From a virus (Monodnaviria; Loebvirae; Hofneiviricota; Faserviricetes; Tubulavirales), in IMG/VR virus record IMGVR_UViG_2660238346_000022: a stretch of DNA of 9,067 bases. One strand, written 5' to 3'. The notes under the pieces were generated by a model. The model saw only the letters and a list, made by a program, of their open reading frames with translations. It did not search any database and was not told the DNA's origin. The position numbers and the translations under genes were made by a program. The stretch's first letter is position 1; every line of letters begins with the position of its first letter. Positions 2,725-8,830 of this stretch are shown one piece after another.

Positions 2725-3150
2725 TCAGCCTTTTTCTTTACCTGCGGGCAGTGCACCCAGCGGCTGACCGTCAAAACGTTTCATGGAGCCGGAAATAAAA
2801 CGATACCAGACACCATGACGTTCTGAGCCTGTCGACCATGAGTTAACATCCACCGTGAGATAAACAGATTTGCCCTGCAAATCAGGACATGAATTAAAAA
2901 ATTTAAAATCCTCCTCAGTACAGGAAAAGCGCTCATGCTCCTCACGGCGGACTTTTAATTTTCGGTCCTCATACGGATAGGCAATAACAATGGCATATTT
3001 GGGTTTGGCCTCAGGGTTATAATGAGAACCCGTGGGTTTTAACTCCTCATCATTTATGACAGTGGCGTGAATAAAATATCCCGCCATTGTCATACCTGCG
3101 GTAAAACCCTCAGGGGAAGGAAACGGAAAACTGTCGTAAATTTGATTCAT
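2725..3150 (-). CDS. Hypothetical 141-aa protein, putative ssDNA-binding protein by position (gene V slot)
   Basis: ATG at 3150 preceded by GAGGAG; sits immediately downstream of Rep as gene V does in Ff. No motif recognised, so the function is positional inference only. Confidence 0.4.
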   Translation of the reverse strand: MNQIYDSFPFPSPEGFTAGMTMAGYFIHATVINDEELKPTGSHYNPEAKPKYAIVIAYPYEDRKLKVRREEHERFSCTEEDFKFFNSCPDLQGKSVYLTVDVNSWSTGSERHGVWYRFISGSMKRFDGQPLGALPAGKEKG

Positions 3151-3180: not shown

Positions 3181-5422
<2,242 letters not shown>

Positions 5423-5555
5423 GACCTCATGTCCTCATGATGAAAGACAAAAAAGAACATACTCAAAAAACATCATGAACACAAGATGTATTAACAACAT
5501 TTGCTCAAGTGCTCTAGAGTACATGATGGCTAAATACAAAAAAGGGGGCTAAATA
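5423..5555. promoter_or_regulatory. Divergent promoter/operator region between the Rep operon (minus) and the RHH regulator gene (plus)
   Basis: AT-rich 133-bp spacer. Candidate minus-strand promoter: -35 TTGTGT (5484-5479), 17-bp spacer, -10 TATGTT (5461-5456). Near-palindrome gtgCTCTAGAGtac at 5509-5522; CATGATG/CATCATG motifs at 5436-5442, 5472-5478 and 5522-5528. Confidence 0.35.
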
Positions 5556-5756
5556 ATGGCTGAAAAAAGAAAGAGTTATAACGTGCCAAACGAGAAGTAT
5601 CTAAAGCTAGAAAGATTAGCTATTGATGCAAGTCAAAAGATAGGAAGGAGCATAAAATGGACCGAAGTACTGTCTTACATGATAGATCACTACGCAAAAG
5701 ACGCAGCAATAGATATGGTAAGTCAGGAAGAACTTAAGAAAAAAAAGGCAATGTGA
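5556..5756 (+). CDS. Ribbon-helix-helix (CopG/Arc-like) DNA-binding protein, putative phage repressor/regulator (66 aa)
   Basis: Strong RBS AAGGGGG 8 nt before the ATG. Sequence fits the RHH pattern: beta-strand KSYNV, helix A EKYLKLERLAIDA, turn with G-x-S (GRS), helix B IKWTEVLSYMIDHY. Transcribed divergently from Rep, as rstR is in CTXphi. Confidence 0.6.
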   Translation: MAEKRKSYNVPNEKYLKLERLAIDASQKIGRSIKWTEVLSYMIDHYAKDAAIDMVSQEELKKKKAM

Positions 5757-5819
5757 TCCCTTTCCCAACGTCAAACAAACAGGCCAGGAAAGATCAAAGG
5801 AAAAGTTAAACAAGGAAAT

Positions 5820-5975
5820 ATGCAGATAACCAGTGACTTAATCCTTGACCTGCTGATAAAGCATTTCGTTGTTGGCAGCATCACAGGCATGACAATATTC
5901 AGCCTGATAACGCTTGTCCCACCGTTGGTGATGACCATACACAAAAAACTAAGTAAGGACACTGAAATCCTTTAA
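5820..5975 (+). CDS. Small hydrophobic protein (51 aa) downstream of the RHH gene; not in the supplied ORF track
   Basis: ATG at 5820 preceded by AAGGAA; MQITSDLILDLLIKHFVVGSITGMTIFSLITLVPPLVMTIHKKLSKDTEIL; TAA at 5973-5975. Hydrophobic residues 7-40, charged tail. Followed directly by the 6010-6040 hairpin. Confidence 0.4.
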   Translation: MQITSDLILDLLIKHFVVGSITGMTIFSLITLVPPLVMTIHKKLSKDTEIL

Positions 5976-5980
5976 GGTTC

Positions 5981-6074
5981 AGTGCGCACAATGACGTTAT
6001 GTATAAAAAGGCCGCTGCGGTGGAGAGTATCGCAGCGGCCTTTTCAACATAACGCGTGTCACATTATGCGCACT
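5981..6074. other. Candidate XerCD-dependent attachment region: imperfect palindrome with dif-like arms flanking a hairpin
   Basis: 5981-5991 aGTGCGCAcAA (9/11 to the E. coli dif XerC arm GGTGCGCATAA); 5997-6007 TTATGTataAA (8/11 to the XerD arm). Inverted partner: 6042-6052 tTTcAACATAA and 6064-6074 TTATGCGCACt (10/11 to the XerC arm complement). Confidence 0.5.
6003..6044. terminator. Bidirectional rho-independent terminator-like hairpin
   Basis: Perfect 10-bp stem ggccgctgcg (6010-6019) / cgcagcggcc (6031-6040), 11-nt loop, flanked by ataaaaa upstream and tttt downstream, so each strand reads as stem plus T-run. Confidence 0.6.
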
Positions 6075-6127: not shown

Positions 6128-6850
<723 letters not shown>

Positions 6851-6903
6851 AATCAATCTCATCATGTTATACCGTTAAGTGCTGTTTTTCAGTCATGAAG
6901 ATA

Positions 6904-7005
<102 letters not shown>

Positions 7006-7078
7006 ATCAGACCTGCCAGTCCGGCAGGCAGGTGCAGTCCATGAAAACAAAGCGCGGATTAAGCTGCGGTGCACACTA

Positions 7079-7156
<78 letters not shown>

Positions 7157-7187
7157 GTAAGCTGGTTGACCATGTCAGCAAAGAGCA

Positions 7188-7272
<85 letters not shown>

Positions 7273-7306
7273 TGCCATCACAAGCGCAACTGAAGCATTC
7301 TGCCTC

Positions 7307-7341
<35 letters not shown>

Positions 7342-7390
7342 AGGTGCAGTCCATGGAAACAAAGCACGGATTAAGCTGCGGTGCACACTA

Positions 7391-7434
<44 letters not shown>

Positions 7435-7481
7435 CCATCGCCTGTACGCGTCGTGTTCTGCACAGCCAGTAAGCTGGTTGA

Positions 7482-7611
<130 letters not shown>

Positions 7612-7624
7612 AGTGTCCTCTGTC

Positions 7625-8830
<1,206 letters not shown>

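Follow-up and report, generated by a model that had tools for sequence, protein, structure and literature searches.

We report that a 51-codon reading frame in a filamentous phage genome, ORF51, is very likely a genuine coding gene and that, with its relatives, it adds a new family of narrow distribution to a class already known from temperate inoviruses, that of small accessory membrane proteins. Our best guess as to its function, made from position and by analogy, is that ORF51 would be an accessory inner-membrane protein made in lysogens, where it would exclude superinfecting phages; we put the probability of this reading at roughly 45%.

The phage genome and the position of ORF51

[quoted passage not shown] The phage is of the YpfΦ, CUS-1 and UPΦ kind, as described in PMC4266046 and PMC7307601. 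Among annotated genomes, it is closest to prophages that lie in tandem beside hipBA on E. coli chromosomes (e.g. in strain TD225-C4, 98% identity). The features of the window are listed below.

734-2098, - strand: pIII, Gly/Ser-rich, with a Phage_Coat_A domain
2725-3150, - strand: G5P-like gene, a weak match (E 0.034, under the Pfam cut-off)
3181-5283, - strand: Rep, GPA-type
5491-5520, + strand: candidate sigma-70 promoter between the divergent rep and RHH-like genes, TTAACA-18-TAGAGT (consensus scan only, 9 of 12 matches)
5556-5756, + strand: 66-aa RHH-like gene of the phrog_2503 family (PHROG match 7e-27)
5812-5817, + strand: AAGGAA Shine-Dalgarno-like element, read from the sequence, 2 nt 5' of the ATG
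5820-5975, + strand: ORF51, gene for a predicted 51-aa single-helix membrane protein (sequence, hydropathy, helix model, homologues, coding signature)
5982-6073, no strand assigned: attP, two inverted dif-like sites in a forked hairpin (single-stranded DNA fold, junctions, relatives)
6010-6040, no strand assigned: stem-loop at the apex of the attP hairpin, rich in GC, with an A-run and a T-run at its sides
6128-6263, - strand, convergent with ORF51: 3' remnant of the secretin (pIV/GspD) gene (blastn against the intact relative L001, and annotation of L001 and L002)
7625-8827, - strand: Zot/pI
Small ORFs, - strand: presumed coat and pVI genes among them (position and sequence features only, zero Pfam matches)

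In intact relatives the secretin gene converges on ORF51. The window copy retains the last ∼136 nt of this gene (6128-6263), the rest being deleted, and virion export by this copy alone is probably not possible.

Three further observations concern the same genome. Following the secretin remnant, positions 6264-6850 consist of four tandem 145-bp units, and ∼100 nt of each unit correspond to sequence close to the 5' end of a complete secretin gene. The adjoining stretch 6860-7640, which includes a 312-bp unit repeated 1.9 times (6904-7509), has no counterpart in L001. Copies of this stretch occur in 261 of 5426 E. coli genomes, at up to 30 places per genome and on both chromosomes and plasmids; in strain 100416 it is located between zot and the secretin gene. 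It has the appearance of a small mobile element of repetitive nature, and part of it may resemble the primosome-assembly region of ColE1. Finally, an 82-aa ORF on the - strand (5174-5422; weak phrog_3104 match, E 6e-4) overlaps the longest Rep reading frame (3181-5283), and is annotated in L001 as a gene of its own just upstream of a shorter Rep.

Conservation of ORF51 as a coding sequence

Since the window holds 89 ORFs of at least 30 aa, the bare presence of ORF51 is not beyond chance; it is conservation that raises it above this level. Three subfamilies can be distinguished among the homologues: A, to which the window protein belongs (51 aa), B (46 aa) and C (57 aa). A word-indexed search of 5.8 billion proteins with an alignment of all three returned 10 clusters, all from Escherichia or (gut) metagenomes, and a full HMM profile scan of 1.84 billion representatives returned only ORF51's own two clusters. 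IMG/VR contributed 13 more loci. The three subfamilies were found only in Escherichia filamentous prophages, and the homologues among the proteins searched are all named 'hypothetical'. Pfam, PHROGs, NCBIfam and PADLOC yielded nothing significant, two scans of GTDB species-representative genomes yielded nothing, and tblastn with all three subfamilies found no matches in deposited phage genomes.

At every locus the ATG is kept, the frame has 51, 46 or 57 codons, and the stop codon lies 5-10 nt (6 nt in the window) from the XerC arm of attP; of the six frames, that of ORF51 is the only one open across all relatives. Conservation of the frame and its start in related prophages had been named as a check when ORF51 was first pointed out, and both are kept in all three subfamilies. 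Substitutions between subfamilies concentrate at third codon positions, as follows.

A-B: DNA 55%; differences at codon positions one, two and three, 17/10/32; p 0.0016
A-C: DNA 45%; differences 28/18/38; p 0.028
B-C: DNA 46%; differences 23/15/33; p 0.032

Overall, protein identity between subfamilies is 29-46% and DNA identity 45-55%. Comparison of A with the 46-aa homologue gave saturated synonymous sites (26.8 of 29.5 differ) and 32.2 differences at 102.5 non-synonymous sites, and of the 20 residues that A and B have in common, 12 are encoded by different codons. Among close subfamily-A relatives having synonymous differences, dN/dS was 0.2-0.6. Aligned positions retain their hydrophobic class in 41 of 44 cases for A-B, and in 39 of 51 and 38 of 44 for the other pairs. 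M1, I8, L9, D10, L12, K14, G23 and P35 are invariant, the ILDLLxK motif is retained across subfamilies, and a basic C-terminal tail occurs in all three.

These patterns bear on the alternative that the frame is open by chance in DNA conserved for a cis-acting role (as attP accessory sequence, packaging signal or replication origin). Several facts would suit such a reading: ORF51 directly abuts attP, its Shine-Dalgarno element is weak in many copies, RefSeq/PGAP leaves subfamily A unannotated in 12 of the 12 complete E. coli genomes that carry it, and in CTXΦ the corresponding stretch past rstR, ig-1, does not code for protein but contains the origin. Nevertheless, we regard it as extremely improbable, given the third-position excess, the saturated synonymous sites and the protein pattern retained across three subfamilies, together with the conserved ATG and length class and the single frame open in all relatives. 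Subfamily C is, moreover, annotated in RefSeq (WP_001409659.1), and the exact window protein is already in GenBank through older annotations (EZJ41161.1 and others). The more specific idea that the region is the origin of this Rep was rejected, as phages with a 98%-identical Rep lack the region entirely.

Start signals and the predicted protein

The sequence confirmed that ORF51 runs from ATG to TAA with AAGGAA upstream (5820-5975, + strand, 51 codons), position 5820 being the first start codon past the upstream in-frame stop. Its product is MQITSDLILDLLIKHFVVGSITGMTIFSLITLVPPLVMTIHKKLSKDTEIL. The sequence-only reading had taken AAGGAA as the ribosome-binding site; the element is indeed present in the window, at a short spacing of 2 nt, but it is particular to this copy and is not conserved. 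Most close relatives have aagaagcaatATG in its place and one has GAGG; the same spot reads AAGGGG in the 57-aa subfamily and a weak aagaag in most of subfamily A, and comparison of the relatives' upstream regions revealed no Shine-Dalgarno element at the equivalent spot in the 46-aa subfamily. Shine-Dalgarno-like elements thus precede the same ATG in several lineages, and because they are weak or absent in many copies, translation of ORF51 may be low.

The earlier description of one long hydrophobic stretch with a charged tail agrees with our analysis: the Kyte-Doolittle 19-residue mean peaks at 1.85 over residues 16-34, and the C-terminal tail, HKKLSKDTEIL, is basic. The layout comprises an acidic amphipathic N-terminus, which carries the invariant I8-L9-D10, L12 and K14 and a polar stripe (D6/D10/K14) along one helix face, a transmembrane segment of approximately residues 16-40 and the basic tail. 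AlphaFold2, run on a four-sequence alignment, gave one continuous helix over residues 2-50 with a mean pLDDT of 86, which is the expected outcome and carries no functional information. Sequence and model together predict a single-pass inner-membrane protein of ∼50 residues; by the positive-inside rule, its N-terminus would face the periplasm and its basic C-terminus the cytoplasm. ILDLL may resemble the transmembrane Asp motif of TolR/ExbD; mimicry of TolR/ExbD through this invariant motif was considered and rejected, there being no Pfam ExbD match and the predicted orientation being opposite.

The upstream RHH-like gene

The 66-aa protein encoded at 5556-5756 belongs to phrog_2503, a family of unknown function. 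It had no Pfam match over the curated cut-off (the sub-threshold best was DUF7753, E 0.038) and no sequence match in the PDB. In an AlphaFold2 monomer model, an extended or unstructured N-terminus is followed by two helices, and Foldseek with this model gave no match at E <= 0.001, only noise. One homologue is named TraY by UniRef, and an RHH nature of the protein is plausible. Homologues placed divergent from rep occur in inoviruses of E. coli, Yersinia, Dickeya and Xenorhabdus; this is the position of rstR in CTXΦ and of YPO2273 in YpfΦ (PMC4266046), and by that analogy the gene is presumed to be a phage regulator.

As had been stated, ORF51 and the RHH-like gene are co-oriented, with a gap of 63 nt in which a consensus scan found no terminator-like site. 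Because the gap is short and without a terminator, and because no conserved sequence upstream of ORF51 could be a promoter of its own, ORF51 is probably co-transcribed with the RHH-like gene. The candidate promoter at 5491-5520 could drive both, albeit from a consensus scan in which the number of sites was not above shuffled expectation.

ORF51 always follows an RHH-like gene on the same strand, except in locus L003, which has no match to any RHH-like allele. Still, the proposal that the two genes form a module of their own was not borne out. The 66-aa protein occurs in identical form together with a subfamily-A ORF in the window and, in locus L014, with a subfamily-B homologue of 45% identity to that ORF, a 71-aa RHH-like allele occurs with A, B and C, and an 82-aa gene (phrog_5219) or a TolA-like gene sometimes lies between the two; together with L003, this indicates that regulator alleles and ORF subfamilies assort independently. 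Nor does the pair constitute an antisense unit to the main phage transcript, as had also been suggested: it is divergent from rep and convergent with the zot/secretin operon, without overlapping as such a unit. In close relatives a conserved DNA block extends from 3 nt before the ATG through attP and into the secretin gene, while everything upstream is swapped. This swapped region resembles the immunity-region exchange of CTXΦ.

A type II toxin-antitoxin system with an RHH antitoxin was also considered and rejected, as there is no stable co-inherited pair and the product is a transmembrane helix rather than a fold of the ParE, RelE or CcdB type.

The attP hairpin downstream of ORF51

Six bases past the TAA lies a XerC arm, GTGCGCACAATG (5982-5993), whose inverted partner, CATTATGCGCAC, is found at 6062-6073; XerD-like arms occupy 5997-6007 and 6042-6052. 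As single-stranded DNA, this region folds at -36.8 kcal/mol, as compared with -15.7 ± 2.5 for shuffled sequences (z = -8.5). In relatives L015 and L020, whose ORFs belong to different subfamilies, the phage joins the hipA-side chromosome exactly past the right XerC arm, as expected for integration at dif, and these prophage ends confirm attP. Yersinia and Dickeya relatives have the identical architecture, and the attP of YpfΦ likewise consists of two inverted dif-like sites (PMC4266046). With two inverted sites, a hairpin and a junction at the XerC arm, the element downstream of ORF51 is an XerCD attP of the CTXΦ/YpfΦ type.

The sequence-only reading had seen a terminator at this place. The structure in question is the apex of the attP hairpin, and to this extent the assignment has to be revised; however, the apex may also terminate transcription. 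As RNA, the apical stem-loop (6010-6040) folds at -30.3 kcal/mol (z = -6.5), and a T-run comes directly after it on either strand (TTTT on the +, TTTTT on the -), so that it may act as a bidirectional intrinsic terminator as well, although a consensus terminator scan did not call it.

Separately, we observed that a stretch of ∼70 bp resembling attP (5982-6051), which comprises a XerC arm, an XerD-like arm and the GC hairpin, is common to ∼950 E. coli records at 81-96% identity. It also occurs on large plasmids and in non-phage elements beside hipA that carry SIR2 or STM4504-family genes and ISNCY, which suggests that mobile elements of several kinds share an att cassette for exploiting Xer.

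ORF51 is an accessory gene in a variable slot

ORF51 belongs to the accessory genes and not to the core. A Rep at least 88% identical to that of the window was found in 40 complete E. coli genomes, of which only 12 have subfamily-A DNA. In relative L018 (E. coli E600003), which combines a 98%-identical Rep with the structural module of 46-aa-subfamily phages, a transposase gene of the IS110 family (7007-7972) replaces the region, so that the RHH-like gene, the ORF51 homologue and attP are all missing. Because L018 lacks ORF51 despite its 98%-identical Rep, ORF51 is neither needed for replication nor the origin of this Rep; presumably, it is dispensable for a structural module of the L018 type too. 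In the window, conversely, ORF51 is intact though the secretin gene is lost. We also noted that L018 and ∼28 other genomes share a 97-98% identical Rep, have the IS110-family transposase instead of the RHH-ORF51-attP(dif) module and reside at other chromosomal sites. A whole lysogeny module has thus been exchanged between inoviruses that are otherwise near-identical.

In the Escherichia phages examined, ORF51 is the one constant occupant of a cargo slot between regulator and attP. Its position and orientation are the same in at least 30 loci, the content of the slot varies, and the gene is absent in L018, as is typical of a regulator-side accessory gene ('moron') of dif-integrating inoviruses. 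Outside Escherichia, the cargo located between the RHH-like gene and attP is unrelated, in Dickeya a 138-aa protein. As a side observation, the slot of a Yersinia enterocolitica prophage (L021/L022, 4314-5335) codes for a protein of 244 aa with a Fic domain and also contains an acidic ORF of 51 aa, unrelated to ORF51, whose stop codon and the XerC arm overlap; the two may represent inovirus cargo made up of a Fic toxin and its small partner.

A further occupant was found in L019 (E. coli UTME-13, NZ_CP157093.1), in which a gene at 6406-6771 lies between the RHH-like gene and the 57-aa homologue (6933-7106), in the same operon. Its product, of 121 aa, combines a signal peptide with a C-terminal domain of the TolA type (domain III; E 4e-18, aligned to TolA 298-386). 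By sequence, this is probably a periplasmic TolA-III decoy, and a candidate decoy for phage g3p or for Tol-dependent colicins. Our literature search returned no account of inovirus proteins with a TolA domain.

The att end of YpfΦ, CUS-1 and UPΦ has been described as carrying variable ORFs that run opposite to the core genes and have no assigned function (PMC4266046, PMC7307601). By these published descriptions, YPO2271/YPO2272 (YpfΦ), orf1/orf1a (CUS-1) and h3-h5 (UPΦ) sit in the same slot as ORF51: they are variable, adjacent to the Xer site and co-oriented with an rstR-like regulator. ORF51 may or may not be one of these named genes; for the functions of YPO2271/YPO2272, we found no paper.

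The ORF51 subfamily tracks the type of pIII, zot and secretin, and not that of Rep or the RHH-like protein, with L031 as the one exception. This co-variation fits an exclusion function specific to the entry route, but it fits a role in assembly or mere physical linkage equally well, and linkage across attP alone could explain it.

Possible functions of ORF51

In the reading that we favour, ORF51 would be the last gene of a short operon that is begun by the RHH-like regulator gene and is divergent from rep, and the transcript would probably end at the apex of the attP hairpin, just past ORF51. The protein would thus be produced in lysogens alongside the regulator and insert in the inner membrane, where it could disturb an envelope machine required by an incoming filamentous phage, e.g. 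TolQRA or the pilus base. The outcome would be superinfection exclusion in the manner of PfsE of Pf phages. We favour exclusion because genes co-expressed with prophage regulators commonly have this function, and because the corresponding operon of the related phage L019 also encodes what is probably a periplasmic TolA-III decoy. In Ff phages, g3p uses domain III of TolA as its co-receptor. Likewise, that YpfΦ lysogens are partly protected against superinfection (PMC4266046) and that Pf phages use the tiny inner-membrane protein PfsE both led us to favour this function.

The sequence-only reading had offered a superinfection-exclusion peptide and a small membrane toxin as possibilities. Both are reasonable, and each has a precedent among inoviruses, PfsE (PMC8764522) and PftP4 (PMC11769263) respectively. 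PfsE (PA0721) of Pf4 and Pf5 is, as predicted for ORF51, a very small inner-membrane protein of a temperate inovirus, and shields the lysogen from superinfection by binding PilC, an inner-membrane component of the route by which the phage enters (PMC8764522). There is no sequence similarity between the two families, the aromatic cluster YAWGW that is conserved in PfsE does not occur in the ORF51 alignment, and ORF51 had no PHROG or Pfam match. PfsE has ∼30 aa; its gene belongs to the main operon and shares the strand of the structural genes, and its N-terminus is predicted to lie in the cytoplasm, whereas the orientation predicted for ORF51 is opposite.

A more far-reaching version, which we consider a long shot, is that ORF51 and its 46- and 57-aa relatives constitute a new family of inner-membrane entry blockers of dif-integrating Escherichia inoviruses, directed against TolQRA or the pilus base. 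Phages like L019 would add a secreted TolA domain-III decoy, yielding a two-layer exclusion cassette whose specificity tracks the phage's own pIII type.

Alternatively, ORF51 could encode a small membrane-damaging toxin (type I or PftP4-like) for addiction or abortive infection, possibly restrained by the RHH-like protein. Size and architecture fit: type I toxins such as Hok, Fst, TisB and Ldr have 20-60 aa and, similar to ORF51, one hydrophobic helix with charged residues able to line an oligomeric pore, for which the D6/D10/K14 stripe would be suitable. PftP4 (PA0726.1) provides the inovirus precedent; like ORF51, it is a single-helix membrane peptide (33 aa) that had previously been unannotated, though the two share no sequence similarity. 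Its gene overlaps the zot stop codon and is co-transcribed with zot, and the peptide is dispensable for virion production; when overexpressed, it is toxic and permeabilises the membrane, but it is not toxic in E. coli (PMC11769263). The weak or absent Shine-Dalgarno element in many copies would suit a gene that needs low translation, and the 57-aa subfamily gave a faint Fst match (E 0.039; 13.8 bits vs a cut-off of 26). Nonetheless, we think a toxin unlikely. The independent assortment of RHH alleles and ORF subfamilies, the intervening genes and the RHH-less L003 are unlike toxin-antitoxin pairs, and ORF51 is apparently co-transcribed with a presumed lysogeny regulator and, in complete E. coli genomes, present in up to three tandem copies per genome (subfamily A). 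The window protein matched nothing in NCBIfam, type I toxin models included, and no toxin model in NCBIfam or PADLOC was matched significantly by the family. Type I toxins further differ in that ORF51 apparently lies within a protein-coding operon, and no antisense RNA or structured leader was identified: the window had no Rfam family match, and the sole promoter-like site on the - strand near ORF51 (6092-6063, 9 of 12 consensus matches) is of a kind expected at chance frequency and so not a convincing antisense promoter.

Another alternative to exclusion is that ORF51 is an auxiliary factor of virion assembly or export, acting in concert with the module of Zot (pI) and secretin (pIV) or with the adjacent hairpin. 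Such a role would account for the conserved block, which reaches from 3 nt before the ATG into the secretin gene and is preceded by swapped DNA, and for an ORF subfamily that follows the pIII/zot/secretin type rather than Rep or RHH. Also, inovirus coat proteins have an acidic N-terminus, a transmembrane segment and a basic C-terminus, a layout that ORF51 matches. On the other hand, L031 breaks the co-variation, for which linkage across attP suffices without any functional tie; L018 has the structural module of the 46-aa subfamily without a homologue; and the window retains ORF51 despite the secretin deletion. ORF51 also lies on the strand opposite to all morphogenesis genes, and the usual position of pVII/pIX in the window phage is already taken by two small ORFs. 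We therefore judge an assembly role very unlikely. ORF51 as the minor coat protein pVII/pIX itself was rejected, given its opposite strand, its location outside the structural block and the lack of a Pfam G7P/G9P match.

Implications for dif-integrating phages

Filamentous prophages at dif (CTXΦ, YpfΦ, CUS-1, UPΦ) affect the virulence and fitness of enteric pathogens, and their att-proximal genes have been labelled 'unknown function' for 20 years. ORF51 represents a conserved gene for a predicted small membrane protein that current RefSeq has missed, and it is tied to the Xer-type lysogeny module independently of the regulator allele. Assuming the exclusion function that we favour, it is a candidate for how dif-integrating phages control re-infection and the growth of tandem arrays. 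If ORF51 does act on TolQRA or the pilus base, it would be a small natural peptide inhibitor of an envelope machine.
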